Translations under genes and position numbers: made by a program
Part shown: positions 10,115 to 47,400 of the stretch, in pieces
Position numbering within the stretch: the stretch's first letter is position 1
How the letters are laid out: every line of letters begins with the position of its first letter
DNA from: Pseudomonadota bacterium
Lineage (GTDB): Bacteria; Pseudomonadota; Alphaproteobacteria; Rhizobiales; Hyphomicrobiaceae
Assembly (NCBI GenBank): GCA_018242255.1
Contig: JAFECH010000345.1
Location: forward strand, 45,799 to 109,798
DNA: 64,000 bases
Direction of reading: 5' to 3'
The notes under the pieces: generated by a model
What the model was told of the DNA's origin: nothing
Databases searched by the model: none
What the model saw: only the letters and a program-made list of their open reading frames with translations

Positions 10115-10963
10115 TTAGAAATGCAGAGTCGAGCCGATAACCGGTCCCTGTTGGAGAACGTCGTATTTGTAGAGCGTATCGCCCGAACCTTGCGAGTAGT
10201 CCACCGACAGCGCTCTATAACCGACGTAACCGTCAAGAACGTAGCCGTTCAAGAGACACATCTGCCAATTGTAGGTCGCCAATACCTGCCAGGAAAAATC
10301 GCTACCGACGCCGAAGCCGCCGAAGTCCGCGCGCAAGACCATCTCGTCGCCATTTGCGAGCTTGTTGCGCAGTCGAGCGCCGACGAAGGGATCGACCCAA
10401 TCGACAGAGCCTGATCTTTCTGTTTCCCTCACAAATGGATCGAGTACGAGCGATCCGGTTATCGTGCTGTCCTGGTGCCAATATCTGCCGCCCGCTACCA
10501 AATCGAGAGCGGACGATGCCGGCACGAGGGGGTTTGCACCAGTCCAGACTTCATATGCACCGCCGAATTCGACCGTGACCTGAGTATAGTCGGCGGACAC
10601 ATCCGCACGCAGAGGGCCGCCGCGACGTCCGCTGAAACCGGTCGAGCCGCTGAGGCTGGCATAGACGACGTCGTTAAAAAGGCCGATTGGACCGCGCCGG
10701 GCTTCCGCGTAGCTCATCCAGGCGGGTAGCGTCGACCAATCCAGATGCCCGAAAATGTCGGACGGGTTGGCGGCGACGGTGAAATCGCGTCCGCGGACAG
10801 TCGTGTTCCCGGACATCCACGGGATCCAACCATACGTCGTGAACGTCAGCGACCACTCCGACGGGTTCTGTTGCTTCGGCGCCGATCCAAAGTCCGCGCC
10901 GAACGCTGCGCCAGTGTTAAATATCAATGCAATCAATAGAGTGACGCTAGGACAAAATTTCAT
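10115..10963 (-). CDS. Putative outer-membrane beta-barrel protein
   Basis: Signal peptide from MKFCPSVTLLIALIF, alternating amphipathic strands (WVDPFVGARL, ADFGGFGVGSDFSWQ, GYRAL) and C-terminal Phe (TLHF). Confidence 0.7.
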   Translation of the reverse strand: MKFCPSVTLLIALIFNTGAAFGADFGSAPKQQNPSEWSLTFTTYGWIPWMSGNTTVRGRDFTVAANPSDIFGHLDWSTLPAWMSYAEARRGPIGLFNDVVYASLSGSTGFSGRRGGPLRADVSADYTQVTVEFGGAYEVWTGANPLVPASSALDLVAGGRYWHQDSTITGSLVLDPFVRETERSGSVDWVDPFVGARLRNKLANGDEMVLRADFGGFGVGSDFSWQVLATYNWQMCLLNGYVLDGYVGYRALSVDYSQGSGDTLYKYDVLQQGPVIGSTLHF

Positions 10964-11139
10964 AGCGAGCCCCAAAACGAAATAAACGAAAAATATCAGC
11001 CTAGTGAAAGTATCATCGATCGCGGACGAAGACTGTGATGCGTTTGCCGCAACGTGATTGCATACGCGGCTCCCGTACAACGAAACGCCGATAAAAAGCC
11101 AACGCCGTAACCAATGAAGCAATGGTTTCAGACTGTCGT

Positions 11140-12261
11140 TCAATTCGTCTTCGCGATCCGAGGCTGATTTCGGTCAGACTTCGGATCGATGGATGAAACC
11201 GCCGCGCGCATGATTATCGCCAGCTTCGCATAGTCCGGCATGATGGCGTAGTCCGCGCATCTGGCCATATTCTCTTCGAAGTCGTCCCACTGCATCGCGT
11301 CGAGCTGATGCCTCGTGAAACGCTCAAATACCGACGCTCTTTGCATTTGAACTACCGGATTGCACGCATCTGCTGCGAGGGATGCAGCATAGGCGCCCTC
11401 GTCGCTTGCGATATAGGTTAGAAACGCCTCCTGGCGCTCACGTCGTTCTTCGCCCCGATGAATAAGCGCATTGATCTCGACGAATGCGACGCCGCCCTTG
11501 CCGTTGATCGGTCCGTTTGCCGGTGTCACGGCCCGAATTTCAGAATGGCCGGCGAGCCGTGCTGGTGACGCGGTATAAGTTCCCCCCGAAATGTAGAAGT
11601 CGATGACGCCCTCGACCAATGCCCGGTTGAGCGCGTTGTGGTCGTCGGAAATGAGTTTCGCGGCCTGGAAAATGTCGCGGGCCGCACAAGAGAAAGAAAT
11701 GAAATCGCCGTCGGTGAAGGTCTGAAACGGGTTGAGGCCAGCCGCGATCGCAATATGCATAATATTGAAATCCTCGTAGGTGAGAATTCCAAAGCGCCCG
11801 TGGAAATCGCGATAAAGCGTCAGGCGAAATCCCTGCTCAGTCGCGAGAGCCCGGGAAAGGCGATTTTCATTGATGACGAGATTGAACGGCCCGCATCGTT
11901 GCGGCACGCCGATCAGGTTGCCGTCGGTTCCCGTCGCCGGTTCTTCGAAACGTGCAAACGGTTCTGAGAGATTTCGGACGTACGGATCGAATGCAGCCGG
12001 GAGAGCGCGGATCAATCCTCGCGGATAGAGTTCGGCGCGGACAAACGGCGTGTTGATATTTATGATGTCCCACGAGTTCGGGTTCTGCTGAACCAAACGG
12101 CTCGCAGCGTCGTCGGAGAGATGATTATCGCCCGCAATATCTAAGCTCGTGTCGCGCCGAAGGGCGGCTGCGAAATCGCCGTCGGCGTACCCCTCCCAAC
12201 CGAGATAGCGCAACGTCGTCATCCCAGAAATCCCATCGCCGGTGGCTATTGTCCAATTCAC
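11140..12261 (-). CDS. PotD/PotF-like solute-binding-fold protein lacking an obvious signal peptide
   Basis: LRYLGWEGYA start of fold, WDIININTPFV, GVPQRCGPFNLVIN resemble polyamine-binding SBPs. The GTG start overlaps the creatininase stop (GTGA). Confidence 0.65.
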   Translation of the reverse strand: MNWTIATGDGISGMTTLRYLGWEGYADGDFAAALRRDTSLDIAGDNHLSDDAASRLVQQNPNSWDIININTPFVRAELYPRGLIRALPAAFDPYVRNLSEPFARFEEPATGTDGNLIGVPQRCGPFNLVINENRLSRALATEQGFRLTLYRDFHGRFGILTYEDFNIMHIAIAAGLNPFQTFTDGDFISFSCAARDIFQAAKLISDDHNALNRALVEGVIDFYISGGTYTASPARLAGHSEIRAVTPANGPINGKGGVAFVEINALIHRGEERRERQEAFLTYIASDEGAYAASLAADACNPVVQMQRASVFERFTRHQLDAMQWDDFEENMARCADYAIMPDYAKLAIIMRAAVSSIDPKSDRNQPRIAKTN

Positions 12262-13010
12262 TCGAAATAAGAGTGCGCGAGTGGCGGTTTCTCAGTCTTG
12301 CCACGCTCTACGACGGCAGAGAGATCCTCGACCATCCAGGCAAACAGTTCGCGCCCCTGCTCAACAGTGGCGAGACTGGGACTGCCCGTGACGCCGTTGA
12401 GACTTGTCCTGTTCACGGGGTGTGCGAACACGAGACCGTCCGTGCGATCTGCGTCATCGGATGTTGGTACGAGTTCGTCGCGGACGATGTTGGATGCTTC
12501 GGCCAACATGAGCGCTGTTTCAGCGGCGTTCGCGTGCCAATCTTCCGCATCGGCAAAGTGCGCAGTTCGGACGCGCGCGCTGATGGCTGCAGTGTTGATG
12601 ACCGCGATCATCATATCGTCATGCTCTGCGCGAAGCATTTCGAGTGCGCAGCGGAGTGGAGCCGCGTTCGTGACGTGGCTATTGACGATAAATAGCCGAC
12701 GAACGCCGCTATGATACGCCCAATCGCCGATTTCCTTGATGATCGTGATCAAGGTTATCGGCTGAAGAGCGATCGTACCGGGCCACCTACGGCTGTGACC
12801 GAGTGAACAGCCGTAGGGAAGCGTCGGAAGCATTGGAACGCGTGTCCGCTCAGCAACTTTTCGGCAGAGCTTCTCCGCAAGGATGAAATCCATGCCGGTG
12901 CCGAGGTGCGGTCCGTGCTGCTCAGTCGCGCCAACCGGAAGAATGGCCGCATAATTGGCTTCCGCCAAATCCAGCGGCAATTCGCACCATGTCCTTTCTG
13001 CCCAATCCAT
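12258..13010 (-). CDS. Creatininase / creatinine amidohydrolase family protein
   Basis: ILPVGATEQHGPHLGTGMD, LPYGCSLGH, NSHVTN, DWHANAAET, NGVTGSPSLATVEQG. Confidence 0.9.
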   Translation of the reverse strand: MDWAERTWCELPLDLAEANYAAILPVGATEQHGPHLGTGMDFILAEKLCRKVAERTRVPMLPTLPYGCSLGHSRRWPGTIALQPITLITIIKEIGDWAYHSGVRRLFIVNSHVTNAAPLRCALEMLRAEHDDMMIAVINTAAISARVRTAHFADAEDWHANAAETALMLAEASNIVRDELVPTSDDADRTDGLVFAHPVNRTSLNGVTGSPSLATVEQGRELFAWMVEDLSAVVERGKTEKPPLAHSYFE

Positions 13011-13020
13011 TGCGCGTCGA

Positions 13021-14382
13021 TCAATAGAACTTGAGGTAGCGAGCGTGTTCCCAATCCGAAACGTGGTTGATGTAGCTCAACCACTCGTCACGCTTGAAAT
13101 CGACCCAAGCTTTCTTCATCGCCGGGCCGAAGGTCGCCTCGCTCAACGGGTCGGCGTCAAATGCATCGACGGCTTCTTCGAGCGTCCGCGGCAGGTGAAA
13201 AACGCCCATCTCTTTGAGTTCGGCTTCGCTCTTCAGGTACATGTTTTCAGTGTGCGGATCGCCGGGATCGAGCCCCTCGGCAATACCTTCGAGACCAGCC
13301 GCAAGAACGAGGGCGGCGCCGAGATATGGATTGCAAGAGCTGTCTGCAGCGCGCAACTCCACGCGACCGCCACCGAGCGGGATGCGAAGTGTGTTCGTAC
13401 GATTGTTGTTGCCGTAGCACGCCCAAACCGGTGCCCAGGTGAAGCCGGACATCGATCCCTTCAAGACGAGGCGCTTATAGCTATTCACCGTCGGCGCGAC
13501 GACGGCGCAAATGGCCGGCAGATGTTTCATGATGCCGGCGAGGAACTGGTATCCGAGCTTCGACAGGCCGCACCCTCGCGGATCGGATGCGTCCGCAAAC
13601 AGATTCTTGCCGGACTTCTTATCCGACAGCGACATATTGAAATGCGCGCCGCTGCCGGCGCGATCGCCGTATGGCTTCGGCATGAACGTCGCGAAGCCGC
13701 CGTGTTTGCGGGCAATTTCGTGGGCCATCATACGGAAGAATACATATTTATCGGCCATGGAAAGAGCATCGAAATAGCGAAAATCGATTTCGAACTGACC
13801 GATGCCGTCTTCGTGGTCGAAGCTGTAGACGTCCCAGCCGAGGCTATTCATCGCGCCGACGAGATCACTGATCCAACCGAGGTTGTCGAGCGTTCGCGCA
13901 ACGTCGTAGGCTGGCTTCTCAAGGTTCTTGCGATCGGAGAGCGGCTTGAAGCCAAGAACCGGATCGTCTTGAAGCACGAAGAATTCAGCCTCCATACCGA
14001 GGTTGAGGCCGTAGCCGAGGGCGTCGGCCTTCGCCAGCGAGCGCTTGAGAATATTGCGGCTGCAGGCTTCGAAGGGTTTTCCCTGGCACCACAGATCGCT
14101 GGCGAACCACGCCACGTCTTTATTCCACGGCAGAATTGCACAAGACGCTGCATCGGGATGCGCGGCGACCTCCTCGTCGCTGACATCCTGCGGGATGCCG
14201 TCGAGCGCCGCTCCGGTGCACAGTTCGGAACCGGCCATCATGCGGTCCATATGCGCAATCGGAACGACCTTTCCTTTGGAGACGCCGTGCATATCGACGT
14301 AGCTCGCGAGCAAAACCTTCACGCCTTCCGCGGCGAGCTTACTTTCGAGCTCTGTCGGCCCTTTGTTTACGATGGCGTCCAT
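13021..14382 (-). CDS. glnT: Glutamine-synthetase-like ligase, GlnT (type III glutamate-ammonia ligase / GmaS-related) family
   Basis: YVDMHGVSKGKVVP, GMEAEFFV, DHEDGIGQFEIDF, FMPKP...GSGAHFNMSL, GNNNRT, RVELRAADSSCNPY. Start set at MDAIVNK (14382). Confidence 0.85.
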   Translation of the reverse strand: MDAIVNKGPTELESKLAAEGVKVLLASYVDMHGVSKGKVVPIAHMDRMMAGSELCTGAALDGIPQDVSDEEVAAHPDAASCAILPWNKDVAWFASDLWCQGKPFEACSRNILKRSLAKADALGYGLNLGMEAEFFVLQDDPVLGFKPLSDRKNLEKPAYDVARTLDNLGWISDLVGAMNSLGWDVYSFDHEDGIGQFEIDFRYFDALSMADKYVFFRMMAHEIARKHGGFATFMPKPYGDRAGSGAHFNMSLSDKKSGKNLFADASDPRGCGLSKLGYQFLAGIMKHLPAICAVVAPTVNSYKRLVLKGSMSGFTWAPVWACYGNNNRTNTLRIPLGGGRVELRAADSSCNPYLGAALVLAAGLEGIAEGLDPGDPHTENMYLKSEAELKEMGVFHLPRTLEEAVDAFDADPLSEATFGPAMKKAWVDFKRDEWLSYINHVSDWEHARYLKFY

Positions 14383-14472
14383 TGGTAGGGTTACTCCGTT
14401 ATCTTTCTTGGTTTTCGTGGGTGAGGGTGGCGGCAGGCTAAACACCCCAGCCGCCGATCTGCGATCCGAAAG

Positions 14473-15486
14473 TTATTTCGCCGCGACCAGAGCGGACACG
14501 AACTTAGCGTCGAACGTGTCCTCGATCTTAGGCTCCGCTTTGATCTGTCCGCGCTTGACAAGGACATCTGCGATCAGCTTTCCGGACGTGAAGAGAGACT
14601 TCGCGTCGTCGTGCGGAGTGAAATATCCCGCCATTTCCGAAACCGGAATATTGTAGGCGCCCTTGGCTTGTTCTTTGACGTCGTCGACGGTCGTCGAAAA
14701 GTATTTCGCGACGATCGCGTAGGCTTCGTCTGGATGCTCCTTCATAAAGGTCATTCCGTCGATGTAGCCTTTGATGATCGAGTCGATCGTCTTCGGATTC
14801 TTGCTGATGTAGTCTTTTGAGAAATAAAGGACGTCAGTAATTAATCCCGGTGCAGATGCCGATGTGTAGATCGTGTGATAGCCGCCGTTGACGTCGAGCT
14901 TCAGGATTTTGCTGATATTGGGTTCGTAAGTCGCGCCCGCAGCGGCGCCTCCGACGAGCGCGCCTGCAACGTTTTCAGGCGTGGTATCGAGACCTTCGAT
15001 ATCAGCTTCGGTCAGGCCCGATTTCTGCAGGCCGTACGCGACGAGCAGGTTGTCGCAAGTCGCGAAGGGATAGGCGACCTTTTTGCCCTTGAGATCGGCC
15101 ATGGACTTTATCGATTTCAACGCGACGACGGCATCGGCGCCGTTGGAGTAGTCGATCGGCATGACGACGTTGAAGGCATTGCCATTCGCGACGAGATTAA
15201 TCACCTGATCGTACGTGTACATTGCGCCCTGGATGCCGCCGCTCTGCAGTGCCGCTGGAATAAGGGCGGGGTCCTCAAAGTCCTTCAGCGCAACCTTGAC
15301 GCCATATTTCTCGAACATGTTCTTTTCGACGGCGATATAGAACGGCGCGTATCCGATCCATGCGACGGTCGCGAGAGATACCTGTTCTTCAGCGTGAGCG
15401 GTCGTTGGCTGGAACGAACTGACGCCGACCAACGCAATCGAGCAGGCCAGTCCGGCATTTCGGAGTGCGGTCCAAAGTTGTCGCAT
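14473..15486 (-). CDS. ABC transporter substrate-binding protein, NitT/TauT (SsuA/THI5-like) family
   Basis: Signal peptide ending AHA; WIGYAPFYIAVEK, DYSNGADAVVA, DLKGKKVA, TYEP, ITDVL. Confidence 0.9.
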   Translation of the reverse strand: MRQLWTALRNAGLACSIALVGVSSFQPTTAHAEEQVSLATVAWIGYAPFYIAVEKNMFEKYGVKVALKDFEDPALIPAALQSGGIQGAMYTYDQVINLVANGNAFNVVMPIDYSNGADAVVALKSIKSMADLKGKKVAYPFATCDNLLVAYGLQKSGLTEADIEGLDTTPENVAGALVGGAAAGATYEPNISKILKLDVNGGYHTIYTSASAPGLITDVLYFSKDYISKNPKTIDSIIKGYIDGMTFMKEHPDEAYAIVAKYFSTTVDDVKEQAKGAYNIPVSEMAGYFTPHDDAKSLFTSGKLIADVLVKRGQIKAEPKIEDTFDAKFVSALVAAK

Positions 15487-15519
15487 ACAAAGTTACTCCT
15501 TGCTGATATTGGCCGGGCA

Positions 15520-16350
15520 CTATGCTTCGGCACCGATGGTTCCCTGTTCCGACCTGTCGAGAGACAGGCCAACCGTCGCGCGGATGCGCTCCATGACTTC
15601 GCGTTTGAGGGCAACGAACGCCGGATCGACTCGCATCATGACGGTGCGTTCCGCCGGCAGCGGAACCTCGTAGATTGTGTCGATGCGACCGGGATGAGGC
15701 GACATCAGAACGACACGCGAGCCGAGATAGAGCGCTTCCTCGACATCGTGTGTGACGAACACGATTGTCGTTCCTTCCTGAGCTACGACGCCCAGAACGA
15801 GATCTTGCATCACTTCTCGCGTCTGCGCGTCGAGCGCGCCGAACGGCTCATCCATCAAGATGATGGACGGCTTCGACATCAGAGCGCGGGCAATGGCTAC
15901 GCGTTGGCGCATGCCGCCGGAAAGTTGCGAAGGATAGGCGTCCTGCGCAGCAGTCAACCCGACGAGGGAAATGAGCTTTACGGCGCGAGCCTCTTCTGCA
16001 CCGCGTTCCAGCGCGAGATTGTCAGAGCTGTTGGCAGCAAGCCGCCGGCTGAACAGCACGTTCTGTTTGACGGTCAGCCAGGGAAAGAGGCTGTAGTCCT
16101 GAAAGACCATGGCGCGATCGACGCCCGGACCATTGATCGGCTGTCCGCCTACGAGAACAGCGCCGTGGTCGGCGATTTCAAGGCCGGCTACAATCCTGAG
16201 AAGCGTGGATTTTCCGCAGCCCGACGCCCCGACGATGGTCAAGAACTCGCCCGACGCGATCGACAGCGATATGTCGTCGAGCACAAGCGTGCTGCCGCGT
16301 TTGCCGGAAAAGCTCTTGACGAGATTTTTGATCTCGATGGCTTTCGTCAT
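15520..16350 (-). CDS. ABC transporter ATP-binding protein (NitT/TauT type)
   Basis: Walker A GASGCGKST, LSGGMRQRVAIARAL, Walker B LMDEPFGALD, VTHD. Confidence 0.95.
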   Translation of the reverse strand: MTKAIEIKNLVKSFSGKRGSTLVLDDISLSIASGEFLTIVGASGCGKSTLLRIVAGLEIADHGAVLVGGQPINGPGVDRAMVFQDYSLFPWLTVKQNVLFSRRLAANSSDNLALERGAEEARAVKLISLVGLTAAQDAYPSQLSGGMRQRVAIARALMSKPSIILMDEPFGALDAQTREVMQDLVLGVVAQEGTTIVFVTHDVEEALYLGSRVVLMSPHPGRIDTIYEVPLPAERTVMMRVDPAFVALKREVMERIRATVGLSLDRSEQGTIGAEA

Positions 16351-16353
16351 CGG

Positions 16354-17223
16354 CTACTGCCTCCTCAGATAGGGGAAGAGGACATGGTGCAGGGCGCGCA
16401 GCAGCTGGTCCTGGATGAGGCCGAGACAGCCGATGACGATGAGCCCGGCAAAAATCTTGTCGGTTTGCAGAAAGCGCTGCGCCTTGAGCACGGCGTATCC
16501 GAGCCCGGAATTCGCGGCGACGATTTCAGCGACCACGAGATACGTCCACGCCCAGCCAAGCGTAATCCGGCACGTCGTAAGGAGCGCCGGGGCGGCGGAG
16601 GGGAATATCACCTTGTAGAGAATCTCGCGTCGTGTTCCGCCCATGGTTTGAGCCGCTTCGATTTGTTGCAACGGCACGCGGCGGACGTCGTCCGCGAACA
16701 TCAGAACCATTTGAAAGAACGTTCCGATGAAAATGACGGCAACCTTCGACAATTCGCCGACGCCGCACCAGATCATCATCAGCGGAACGAACGCGACGGC
16801 GGGCATATATCGGATGAAGTCCATCGCCGGTTCGACAAGGGCTTCGGCGGGCTTGAACGTACCCGCGAGCAGGCCGAGCGGCAGTGCGATGACAAGCGAC
16901 GCGAGAAACCCGAGGCTTACGCGCGTGACGCTGATCGAGAGATCTCCCACGAATCCCTCATTTGCAACCCAGGACCAAAAGCGCCGGATGACATCGAGAG
17001 GGCCGGGCATGAATATTTTGGGGACGAGGGCGGCCTCGTTTAGAAAGGCCCAGACCAAGATTGGCGTCGCGACGCCGATCACCGCATAGATTGCATACTG
17101 ACGCCGGCTCAACCCGCCGCGAATGATCCACTGCCGGCGCTTTGAAGTGGGCGTGGATGGCGCAGTCGACGCGGATTTGACCGGCACATCTGCAGTCGAA
17201 GCGCTCATTACAATAGTCCGCAT
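16354..17223 (-). CDS. ABC transporter permease (NitT/TauT type)
   Basis: Multiple TM helices; EAA loop EAAQTMGG, LGWAWTYLVVAE, SGLGY. Confidence 0.93.
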   Translation of the reverse strand: MRTIVMSASTADVPVKSASTAPSTPTSKRRQWIIRGGLSRRQYAIYAVIGVATPILVWAFLNEAALVPKIFMPGPLDVIRRFWSWVANEGFVGDLSISVTRVSLGFLASLVIALPLGLLAGTFKPAEALVEPAMDFIRYMPAVAFVPLMMIWCGVGELSKVAVIFIGTFFQMVLMFADDVRRVPLQQIEAAQTMGGTRREILYKVIFPSAAPALLTTCRITLGWAWTYLVVAEIVAANSGLGYAVLKAQRFLQTDKIFAGLIVIGCLGLIQDQLLRALHHVLFPYLRRQ

Positions 17224-17294
17224 ATCGAAACGCTCACCATGTCGGCGGGGTGCATCAAAGGCATCGTGGCTTCGAAGGTCGCTTGCATGACAAC

Positions 17295-17316
17295 TAATTA
17301 AATGATCAATTAATTA
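17295..17316. promoter_or_regulatory. Candidate TetR operator between the ABC operon and divergent tetR
   Basis: TAATTAAATGATCAATTAATTA is a 22-bp palindrome with one mismatched pair. A second inverted repeat, ATGCTGC-N9-GCAGCAT, lies at about 17330-17352. Confidence 0.6.
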
Positions 17317-17431
17317 TTGACGCAAGGAAATGCTGCGCGAAAAATGCAGCATTTTTGAACAATCTTGCCACCAGGCCGCGCATTTCTCAGGCAGTCGACT
17401 GGCGTCAGGCGTTTTGGTTTTGCTATGAGGA

Positions 17432-18154
17432 ATGATGAGAGGAAGGATTCGGGGAGAAATGAGTTTGGGAAATCAAGACCGCTCGCCGCCAACCGTGCGC
17501 TCGCCACGGCGGGGAGCCCCGAAGGCCGGAGCTCGACGAACCACGCGCGTCGGACGGCCGAAGTTCGACGTCGCCGCGTTGGATGCGGAAACCCACATTC
17601 GCGAAGTATCCTTGGATCTGTTTGCGGCGCGTGGATTTTCAGCCGTGACAACCAAGGACATCGCAGATGCTACCGGCTTTAATCCGGCGCTGATCTATTA
17701 TTACTTCGGAAGCAAGGAGGAATTGTTCCGCGCGGCCGTCGCTCAGGCAGTCGAGGGAGCGTTCCACCAATTTCGTATCGCCCGCGAAGGACTGAAGCAT
17801 CCACGCGACATCATCTACGGATGGCTCGACAACCACATCAAAGAGTATGAGACGATTGCAAAGTTGATCAAGATCTCGATCGACTACGCGAAAATATCAA
17901 AACGCAATTCACGCATCGATGATGCGATACGGCGCTTTTACGAAGACGAGCGCGATGTGCTTCGTGCCGCTCTTGCCGACGGCATCAAGCGCGGAGACTT
18001 TCGTAAAGTCGATGTCGACGAGACCGCGAGCTTTATTTCGACATATCTGGACGGGGTGTTTGCTCGCGCGATGATCCTCAAAGACTTCAAACCCATCCAA
18101 TCTATCGGAGAGCTTCGTTCGTTTTTGAGCGCCTATTTGGATTGCAAGAAATAG
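17432..18154 (+). CDS. TetR/AcrR family transcriptional regulator
   Basis: HTH LFAARGFSAVTTKDIADATGFNPALIYYYFGSKEELF; divergent from the ABC/glnT operon. Confidence 0.92.
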   Translation: MMRGRIRGEMSLGNQDRSPPTVRSPRRGAPKAGARRTTRVGRPKFDVAALDAETHIREVSLDLFAARGFSAVTTKDIADATGFNPALIYYYFGSKEELFRAAVAQAVEGAFHQFRIAREGLKHPRDIIYGWLDNHIKEYETIAKLIKISIDYAKISKRNSRIDDAIRRFYEDERDVLRAALADGIKRGDFRKVDVDETASFISTYLDGVFARAMILKDFKPIQSIGELRSFLSAYLDCKK

Positions 18155-31385: not shown

Positions 31386-32089
<704 letters not shown>

Positions 32090-46811: not shown

Positions 46812-47212
46812 AAAGGTGGAGGGCTTCTGTTGCCCGGTGCCCTCCGGACCGCGCCTTACCCTGCTAAGGGTAAGGGCTTCAAGTTCAGGCTAGTCGCGCT
46901 GCATTACGCAGCGAGAGCGGCCTCAGCATAGTTGTCATTGGCAACTATTCTGTATGACCCGATAACGGTGGTATCATGCCGAGCAAAAGCTAAGTCCTTT
47001 ACACCTTCGTCGATCCTATTTCGCCCCCATAACAGCTGGGCCTTACGGCCTGTGCTCGCCGGGAAATCCCGACGAAACCACCGGGCCTTGCGGCCGGCTC
47101 CCCGAAGGGAGGCGCAAGGCCCAGCATAAAATGGTGGAGGCGCCGGGTACCGCCCCCGGGTCCGATCGGCTTATTACGACCGCGTTTATCGCCATAGCCG
47201 GCAGAGCCGGCA
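46812..47212 (-). ncRNA. ssrA: Permuted two-piece tmRNA
   Basis: Acceptor piece ends GGCGCCTCCACCA at 47132; coding piece starts GGGGGCG at 47028; tag frame 46942-46904 encodes ANDNYAEAALAA-stop; TATATT -10 at about 47218-47223. Outer ends approximate. Confidence 0.93.
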
Positions 47213-47400
47213 CCCTGAATATAGGGGGCAACCGTTACGAAAAAAAGCGTTTCGGTGACCGGAGTTTCGTTCGTCCTGAAAACCTGTTACCGGCTGTGAC
47301 AGCGGGGTAACGATCAGCCTGCCCGAGGTGGTCCCCCGGGACGCCGCATTTGCGTGGGCGTTTCGTTGCAAGCGCCGCCAAAAAAAGCAGATAATCCCCC

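Follow-up and report, generated by a model that had tools for sequence, protein, structure and literature searches.

Gene content and control of the locus

The operon described here lies within a 64-kb stretch of DNA from a bacterium of the family Hyphomicrobiaceae (64,000 nucleotides, nt; contig JAFECH010000345.1, positions 45,799–109,798 of the forward strand), which is referred to as the window. Homologues assign the source organism to Hyphomicrobium. Seven minus-strand genes, divergent from a gene for a TetR-family regulator, encode an ATP-binding cassette (ABC) importer of the NitT/TauT family, a glutamine synthetase (GS)-like ligase, a creatininase-fold hydrolase, a leaderless protein with the fold of the solute-binding proteins (SBPs) PotD and PotF, and a small outer-membrane beta-barrel (Table 1). 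Relatives of this operon are under the control of guanidine riboswitches, and it appears rather likely that the operon serves guanidine-type nitrogen assimilation. Homologous loci from genomes and metagenomes used for comparison are given as L-numbers (L001, L095 and so on).

All eight genes were recovered by open reading frame (ORF) listing and family scans at the positions given in an earlier note on this DNA, made from the sequence alone, which had also described the divergent TetR gene and the 22-bp palindrome. Intergenic gaps are 3 nt (permease–ATPase), 33 nt (ATPase–SBP), 90 nt (SBP–ligase), and 10 nt (ligase–hydrolase). The ligase gene has its start codon, an ATG, at 14382 and encodes 453 aa, with a GGAG Shine-Dalgarno sequence upstream; this start is shared with the 120 closest homologues, and a 474-aa GTG ORF was rejected as over-extended. 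At the junction of the hydrolase and PotD-fold genes, either a 4-nt GTGA overlap with the hydrolase stop or, with a start at the ATG at 12222, a 35-nt gap is found; the database gene call begins at this ATG, which is probably the annotated start. For the barrel gene, the most likely start is the ATG at 10963, leaving a gap of ~176 nt from the PotD-fold gene.

The arms of the palindrome (TAATTAAATGA/TCAATTAATTA) pair at 10/11 positions. The element is kept as a phylogenetic footprint in five loci (the window and the Hyphomicrobium loci L001, L005, L006, and L092), and since its core, ATTAATT..TTTAATTA, is invariant while the flanks vary, it behaves like an operator and is a probable binding site for the TetR protein. 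A similar element, TTAATTGATTGATTAA, is present in the intergenic region of L095. TetR homologues of 35–84% identity flank genes of the ligase clade defined below in at least 14 loci; the subfamily accompanies the ligase clade. The stretch that separates the palindrome from the TetR gene contains a second, perfect inverted repeat (AAATGCTGC N9 GCAGCATTT, 17328–17354) and a GATTGTTCAAAAA box (17355–17375), both kept in related loci, which could be the site of a second regulator or the tetR promoter.

Public sequencing runs containing the locus sequence were DNA metagenomes only (sediment, wastewater), and a megablast search of the locus against plasmids returned nothing beyond short matches to the ABC ATPase.

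Table 1. Coordinates of the operon, its regulator and the putative operator (numbering of the window)
Feature	Position	Strand	Matches and remarks
TetR-family regulator	17432..18154	+	TetR_N 61 bits and BetI-type C-terminal domain; divergent from operon
AT-rich 22-bp palindrome	17295..17316		Probable TetR operator over operon promoter
ABC importer permease, NitT/TauT family	16354..17223	-	BPD_transp_1 92 bits; TauC/SaoP-like
ABC importer ATPase	15520..16350	-	ABC_tran 116 bits; best matches NitT/TauT-type
Periplasmic SBP of importer, NMT1/SsuA type	14473..15486	-	NMT1 75 bits, SsuA_fam 117 bits, TIGR03427 78 bits
GS-like ligase	13021..14382	-	Gln-synt_C 324 bits; TIGR03105 535.6 bits
Creatininase-fold hydrolase	12258..13010	-	PF02633 220 bits
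Leaderless PotD/PotF-fold protein, 360–373 aa	12261 or 12222 to 11140	-	No Pfam or NCBIfam match
Small outer-membrane beta-barrel, 282 aa	10115..10963	-	Signal peptide, C-terminal Phe

Phylogeny and active site of the ligase

The ligase scored above the cut-off of TIGR03105 ("type III glutamate--ammonia ligase"; cut-off 469.6 bits), a model that does not separate the clades described here, and its best matches in the Protein Data Bank (PDB) were two GmaS structures, 9qur (397 bits) and 7cql (292 bits). Against the model for gamma-glutamylputrescine synthetase, 244 bits were obtained (cut-off 650). A maximum-likelihood tree of 64 sequences resolved three groups, comprising the alpha-type GmaS of the N-methylglutamate (NMG) pathway, a beta/gamma-type group, and a third clade of 53 sequences including the window ligase (Shimodaira–Hasegawa-like approximate likelihood ratio test, SH-aLRT, 98). 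This third clade, sister to GmaS and referred to as the S/D clade, stands apart from the two clades of NMG-linked GmaS, and 7cql, 9qur, and the mgs/mgd-adjacent genes of M. bullatum, R. laguerreae, and Acinetobacter fall in the other two.

Residues of the methylamine pocket were mapped from the structure of RhGmaS, where the pocket consists of Y147, Q175, D177, E179, E186, N188, and K30' (PMC7948447). Within this set, the S/D clade differs by replacement of Q175 with Ser and of N188 with Asp, the remaining residues being conserved. Over the wider pocket, T48', S175, D188, and N237, as well as F176 and F189, are present in 53/53 S/D-clade members, and A48', Q175, N188, and H237 in 9/9 GmaS-type sequences; catalytic D177, E186, and R312, together with W300, are retained in the S/D clade. 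Compared to that of GmaS, the S/D-clade pocket is predicted to be larger (Gln to Ser), to contain an extra carboxylate (Asn to Asp), and to present new aromatic side chains, and as such would suit a planar guanidinium better than ammonium or methylammonium. In true GS, Asp50' and the glutamate of the Glu flap bind and deprotonate ammonium. Both are missing in the window ligase, with Thr at the Asp50' position and Trp at the Glu-flap position, as in GmaS.

No mgs or mgd genes were found beside the S/D-clade ligase at any of 62 loci, and the 64-kb window contains no mgs, mgd, tmm, tdm, or PuuD-type genes, in agreement with the absence of NMG genes and oxidases reported before. On single contigs (L116 and L128–L131), a GmaS-type ligase with the Q/N pocket and an S/D-clade ligase are encoded a few kb apart, which argues for different, non-redundant functions. 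Taken with the separate clade and the fixed pocket, this co-occurrence argues that the S/D clade would be a distinct ligase of one fixed specificity, neither GmaS nor an ordinary glutamine synthetase. The window ligase lies outside bona fide GmaS, a separation on which the reading in the earlier note depended, and its assignment as the ordinary GmaS of a methylotroph was ruled out by the tree and the pocket residues.

The name GlnT, under which the ligase had been listed, is misleading. Plasmid-borne glnT of Rhizobium and Acinetobacter, and the homologue from Methylobacterium bullatum, are ~40% identical to the window ligase and adjoin mgsABC and sarcosine-oxidase-like mgd genes, and classical glnT is therefore the GmaS of the NMG pathway. 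What the window ligase has in common with GmaS (RhGmaS 7cql; 9qur; rhizobial GlnT) is the GS-like fold, the TIGR03105 match, the D177/E186/R312 set, W300 in place of the Glu flap, the conserved ATP and glutamate residues, and the missing Asp50'. It differs in its sequence (~40–52% identical), its clade, its S175/D188/T48'/N237 pocket, and the gene partners of its clade, which are creatininase-like, PotD-like, MetX-like, or guanidine-degradation genes and not mgsABC/mgdABCD.

Gene neighbourhoods of the ligase clade

The neighbourhoods of 62 S/D-clade loci from genomes and metagenomes were surveyed. The ligase gene is adjoined by a gene for a MetX-like alpha/beta hydrolase in 20 loci, a creatininase-like gene in 17, a gene for a leaderless PotD-like protein in 17, and an arginase-family gene in 7. 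The placing of the PotD-like gene differs between loci. In sponge symbionts, for example, the order is EamA, PotD-like, ligase, and in L086 it is TetR, ligase, Amt, PotD-like; in L004, a bicistron of TetR and PotD-like genes is divergent from ABC importer and ligase genes. Transporters beside the ligase also vary (NitT/TauT ABC, APC permease, Amt, or EamA). Within Hyphomicrobium, the ABC importer of the window is swapped for an APC permease in L002 (TetR, APC permease, ligase, hydrolase, PotD-like), and ligase, hydrolase, and PotD-like genes stay together; relatives of the operon are present in H. facile-like genomes.

Two of these loci contain further genes of note. In L089 (2332–7086), beside Amt, ligase, Tmm, and Tdm genes, two divergent GS-like genes were found with genes for a cytochrome P450 and a class-I glutamine amidotransferase (GATase), forming an isopropylamine-type cluster that resembles IpuC/IpuD/IpuF. 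In L098, a match to the "5' ureB sRNA" model (1376–1677) points to urease genes ~6 kb from a cluster of TetR, APC permease, creatininase-like, and ligase genes, a proximity that is compatible with urea as a product of the module.

Guanidine riboswitches in related operons

Riboswitches were searched with Rfam models in 0.78 Mb of sequence around S/D-clade members and in control loci totalling 146 kb. In the S/D-clade loci, the gathering score was exceeded by eight matches to Guanidine-I and two to Guanidine-II, and no guanidine riboswitch was found in the control loci. The matches fall in four independent lineages.

In the first lineage (L127, L128, L129, L131, L140, and L145), a Guanidine-I element of 78–80 bits precedes a tightly packed series of genes for an agmatinase-family protein, HypA, HypB, the ligase, an SBP, a permease, and an ATPase. 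This is the gdmH-ghaAB-gimABC layout (PMC12704784) with the ligase gene inserted. In the second, L106, the order is Guanidine-I (87 bits), permease, ATPase, UAAP1/UAAP2, Guanidine-II, urea-type carboxylase (1960 bits), allophanate hydrolase, ligase, and MetX-like hydrolase, which is the layout of a guanidine carboxylase operon with the ligase gene appended. In the third, L095, an NMT1 SBP gene is located 18 nt downstream of a Guanidine-I element (74.5 bits) and is followed by genes for a 2-oxoglutarate-Fe(II) oxygenase, a 309-aa protein matching no Pfam family, and a permease; this set adjoins a TetR gene (63% identical to that of the window), a divergent ligase gene (79% identical), and a creatininase-like gene. 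In its arrangement, the pair of oxygenase and 309-aa protein resembles the methylguanidine hydroxylase/lyase pair MgdH/MgdL (PMC12508155).

The fourth lineage is L008, a Hyphomicrobium metagenome-assembled genome with the same operon as the window. Here, a mini-ykkC (Guanidine-II) element with two ACGG-loop hairpins (11383–11426, minus strand) scored barely above threshold (32.6 bits, threshold 32), 18 nt upstream of a gene for a CaCA/ChaA-like cation/proton antiporter (10187–11365) located beside the PotD-like gene. The antiporter is a candidate for a novel kind of guanidinium exporter.

Since riboswitches of these classes control operons related to that of the window, the substrate is probably guanidine or a small guanidino compound, and not a generic amine or amide. 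The earlier note had proposed the import, ligation, and hydrolysis of an unspecified amine or amide; the import–ligate–hydrolyse outline for a nitrogen compound is kept, and the generic substrate is replaced. Two routes of guanidine degradation are described, through GdmH and through a carboxylase (PMC11018352, PMC12623156). Ligase relatives are found inside operons of both types, GdmH and Gca/CgdAB/allophanate hydrolase (PMC12704784, PMC12508155), whereas the window operon is under TetR, not a riboswitch, and its ligase and creatininase-fold hydrolase are without a described role in guanidine metabolism. None of the known guanidine genes (GdmH, Ni maturases, carboxylase, CgdAB, allophanate hydrolase) was found in the window. 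The searchable literature contained no GS-like ligase or creatininase-like enzyme in guanidine metabolism and no gamma-glutamylguanidine; likewise, nothing was found there on a cluster of GS-like and creatininase genes, on gamma-glutamyl pathways in Hyphomicrobium, or on ykkC together with glutamine synthetase. The cluster matches no pathway described in that literature, as had been supposed.

Importer and hydrolase

The importer of the window resembles the guanidine importer GimABC. GimABC is of the NitT/TauT type, and its SBP, GimA, has a KD of 97 nM for guanidine (PMC12704784); the window importer likewise consists of a NitT/TauT-family SBP, a permease, and an ATPase, and its SBP and GimA are members of one family. 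Directly behind the Guanidine-I riboswitch of L106, a permease is encoded that shares 57% identity with that of the window; the window SBP is only 24–28% identical to riboswitch-linked SBPs. All scores of the SBP (NMT1/SsuA, and TIGR03427 for the urea-carboxylase-associated SBP) are under equivalog cut-offs.

The hydrolase scored 114 bits against the creatininase model TIGR04448 (cut-off 235) and 111 bits against MftE (cut-off 172). In an alignment with P. putida creatininase, all five metal ligands (E, H, D, H, E) and the catalytic His are matched, V/T stands in place of the creatinine-contact residues Y121/E122, and the glycine-rich motifs are altered. Creatininase (PDB 1j2t/1q3k) and the window hydrolase thus have the fold, the metal ligands, and the catalytic His in common, and differ in the creatinine contacts, in the glycine-rich motifs, and in the equivalog score. 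Because the metal ligands and His are kept and the creatinine contacts lost, the hydrolase is predicted to be an active binuclear metallohydrolase with a substrate other than creatinine. Assignments as creatininase, MftE, or IolN were rejected, given the scores under the equivalog cut-offs and the replaced Y121/E122 contacts.

A leaderless PotD-fold protein and the outer-membrane barrel

The product of the gene following the hydrolase gene had no match in Pfam or NCBIfam scans. Its PotD-type fold, proposed before from the sequence, was borne out by an AlphaFold model (pLDDT 94.8, 85-sequence alignment) with TM-scores of 0.70–0.80 to PotD/PotF at 13% identity. In a profile search, its WEGY motif aligned with the WSDY/WSEY amine-binding motif of PotF/PotD, and the amine-anchoring W-x-x-Y and acidic positions are kept. 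A signal peptide is impossible because the hydrolase gene ends where the PotD-fold gene begins, and the protein is predicted to be leaderless and cytoplasmic. The sole ABC system at the locus has its own NMT1-type SBP. The window protein therefore has the type-II SBP fold and N-terminal W-x-x-Y motif of PotD/PotF but, unlike them, is not exported, has no partner PotABC, and is encoded beside a ligase.

The family was compared using 74 members from 80 genome loci. All copies whose genes are followed by genes for an ABC ATPase and permeases carry a twin-arginine (Tat) leader, and all copies adjoining a GS-like gene are leaderless. Copies exported through Tat group together in a single clade (support 100), and the leaderless copies form several older lineages outside it. 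Eight otherwise conserved positions, D151 and H195 among them, distinguish these lineages from the Tat clade. Decay of a transporter SBP was ruled out as an origin of the leaderless form, these lineages being old, conserved, and outside the Tat clade. The linkage of PotD-like genes to the ligase gene, and in L004 to the TetR gene, suggests ligand capture or sensing; from the Asp/His pair specific to the leaderless form, an enzymatic role is also possible.

The Tat-exported paralogues (~40% identical) head ABC importers in L046, L051, L055, L058, L071, and ~40 more loci from marine Alpha- and Gammaproteobacteria and sponge symbionts. These loci carry genes for an APH-family kinase, class-III aminotransferase-like proteins, a short-chain dehydrogenase/reductase, and an acylating aldehyde dehydrogenase, as well as bacterial microcompartment shell proteins, a diol dehydratase, and its reactivase, and look like amino-alcohol (1-amino-2-propanol or ethanolamine) microcompartment loci with an undescribed importer. 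Other leaderless PotD-like genes (L010, L018, L021, L030; L039, L059, L063) adjoin genes for catabolic enzymes, namely hydantoinase A/B-type ATP-dependent hydrolases, a DAO-type oxidase, RidA, and an AstE-like deacylase, or pairs of Rieske oxygenase genes, so the cytoplasmic PotD-like form recurs with catabolic enzymes beyond the ligase.

The last gene of the series encodes a protein for which a Pfam scan gave zero matches. Its AlphaFold model (pLDDT 82.5) is all-beta, with TM-scores of 0.5–0.58 to outer-membrane barrels of 10–12 strands, and the barrel fold given to it in the earlier note stands. The gene is not a conserved member of the cluster, being missing from related operons. Membership is made doubtful by the larger gap preceding the gene and by a homologue, 69% identical, which is unlinked to the operon in another Hyphomicrobium genome (L160), and a role of the barrel as part of the pathway was set aside as unsupported.

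Outside the operon, the minus strand of the window carries a two-piece alphaproteobacterial tmRNA (46815–47250, 303 bits) and a tRNA gene (32004–32077).

Proposed pathway and alternative readings

The operon may be a TetR-repressed nitrogen-scavenging module for free guanidine or a related small guanidino compound, in which the ligase acts before the hydrolase, a reading that we regard as plausible and somewhat short of probable; the specific ligase-first chemistry is put forward more tentatively still. In this scheme, the guanidino compound would be brought in by the GimABC-like NitT/TauT ABC importer and coupled by the GS-like ligase, with ATP, to the gamma-carboxyl group of glutamate, giving gamma-glutamylguanidine. 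Creatinine, the substrate of creatininase, is a cyclic acylguanidine, and an acylguanidine is far less basic and easier to hydrolyse than guanidinium. Because gamma-glutamylguanidine is a linear acylguanidine, ligation is proposed as an activation step, after which the creatininase-fold metallohydrolase would cleave the activated guanidino group, with glutamine and urea as net products. The leaderless PotD-fold protein would bind the cationic substrate or intermediate in the cytoplasm, either for capture and hand-over to the ligase or as a ligand sensor together with TetR. We infer guanidine as the substrate of the riboswitch-less window operon from its relatives, and the order of ligase and hydrolase, the bond cleaved, and the role of the PotD-fold protein are likewise inferred.

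Elements of this scheme have precedents. The guanidine carboxylase pathway also spends ATP to activate guanidine before deimination. In the pathways of PuuA/PuuD (putrescine), IpuC/IpuF (isopropylamine), and GlnA4 (ethanolamine), an ATP-dependent GS-like ligase glutamylates the substrate and a hydrolase acts later. Unlike these, the window has no oxidation step and no gamma-glutamyl hydrolase of the class-I GATase type, its hydrolase being of the creatininase fold, and glutamylation is proposed to activate the attached group so that it can be cleaved, where an amine would otherwise be shielded from oxidation. The ligase clade, its pocket, and its neighbourhoods support a compact route of import, ligation, and hydrolysis distinct from GmaS/NMG and PuuA, as the earlier note had suggested.

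Several observations weigh against guanidine as the substrate or against ligation as the initial step. No guanidine riboswitch was found in the window by the Rfam search, and none of any class near the pairs of PotD-like and ligase genes or at other leaderless PotD-like loci, so the PotD-like protein has no independent link to guanidine. In many contexts of the ligase clade, a guanidine link is not recognisable, including those with the MetX-like hydrolase (20 loci), Amt, and Tmm/Tdm (L089), and the EamA/S-methyltransferase loci of sponge symbionts. The window SBP is just 28% identical to the SBPs of riboswitch-GdmH operons and under the TIGR03427 cut-off. Textbook creatininase action on gamma-glutamylguanidine would return glutamate and guanidine, so that the proposal needs cleavage of another bond. 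Finally, the operons of L127 and L106 already encode complete known guanidine routes, and the ligase could therefore merely capture the ammonia released.

The last point leads to the main rival, which is judged improbable and in which the order is reversed: the creatininase-fold enzyme would hydrolyse the guanidino compound to ammonia and urea, and the ligase would trap the ammonia as a dedicated, substrate-induced glutamine synthetase, with a net reaction identical to that of the ligase-first scheme. Besides the embedding of the ligase in the ammonia-yielding guanidine operons of L127 and L106, this rival draws on the genes for Amt-family ammonium channels adjoining the ligase gene in L086, L089, and L117, on an amidase and AllG encoded nearby in L119–L121, and on the acceptance of ammonium by RhGmaS, weak as it is (Km 8.7 mM). 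It has to contend, however, with a ligase that lacks both ammonium-handling residues of true GS, with a Q175-to-S replacement that would widen the pocket where a smaller substrate would need the opposite, and with GSI, which already serves the cells for ammonia; moreover, we know of no creatininase-fold enzyme that hydrolyses free guanidine.

Two further readings are weaker. If an N-methyl amide or methylguanidine were imported and methylamine freed by the hydrolase, the ligase would be a second GmaS for an NMG pathway located elsewhere, as could be expected from the TIGR03105 score, the closest structures, the GmaS catalytic residues, a homologue of 78% identity encoded between Amt and Tmm-Tdm genes in L089, and the use of methylamine by Hyphomicrobium species through the NMG pathway (PMC5023228). 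This is very improbable in view of the separation of the clade from every NMG-linked GmaS, the replacement of Q175 and N188 throughout the clade, the absence of adjoining mgs/mgd genes from all clade loci and of any such genes from the window, and the presence of both ligase types in L116 and L128–L131. Least probable of the readings considered is gamma-glutamylation of an amino alcohol or diamine in the manner of PuuA or GlnA4, with the PotD-fold protein as the mark of a polyamine-like or amino-alcohol substrate. The retained W-x-x-Y and acidic anchoring positions of that protein, and the service of its Tat-exported paralogues to importers in amino-alcohol-like catabolic loci, agree with such a substrate, but the leaderless lineages lie outside the Tat clade with eight conserved positions changed (D151 and H195 included), the operon encodes no oxidase, dehydrogenase, or PuuD-type gamma-glutamyl hydrolase, the ligase is far under the cut-off for gamma-glutamylputrescine synthetase (244 against 650 bits), and the riboswitch evidence points to guanidine.

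Implications

The recognition of guanidine as a widespread nitrogen source for bacteria is recent. Guanidine is sensed by four classes of riboswitch, and of its known degradation routes, the GdmH hydrolase is Ni-dependent and the carboxylase pathway biotin-dependent. In several phyla, the conserved ligase/hydrolase pair forms part of guanidine-sensing operons; in Hyphomicrobium it stands alone with an importer, and the window adds a TetR-controlled, stand-alone form from this genus with a linked cytoplasmic PotD-fold protein. A third route for guanidine that is independent of biotin and nickel, spends one ATP, and involves a guanidine-responsive TetR and a cytoplasmic PotD-fold helper is, with all these parts taken together, rather unlikely, though less so than any of the alternatives above.

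Current annotation gives members of the S/D clade the name "type III glutamate--ammonia ligase" or includes them under gmaS, so that environmental surveys in which gmaS is the marker for methylamine may miscount. The TetR protein is a candidate protein sensor for guanidine, and the PotD-fold protein would be a case of an SBP fold working inside the cell beside an enzyme. If the proposed scheme is true, it would constitute a third route of guanidine assimilation, give the solute-binding-protein fold a new role, and explain the unassigned passengers of guanidine-sensing operons.

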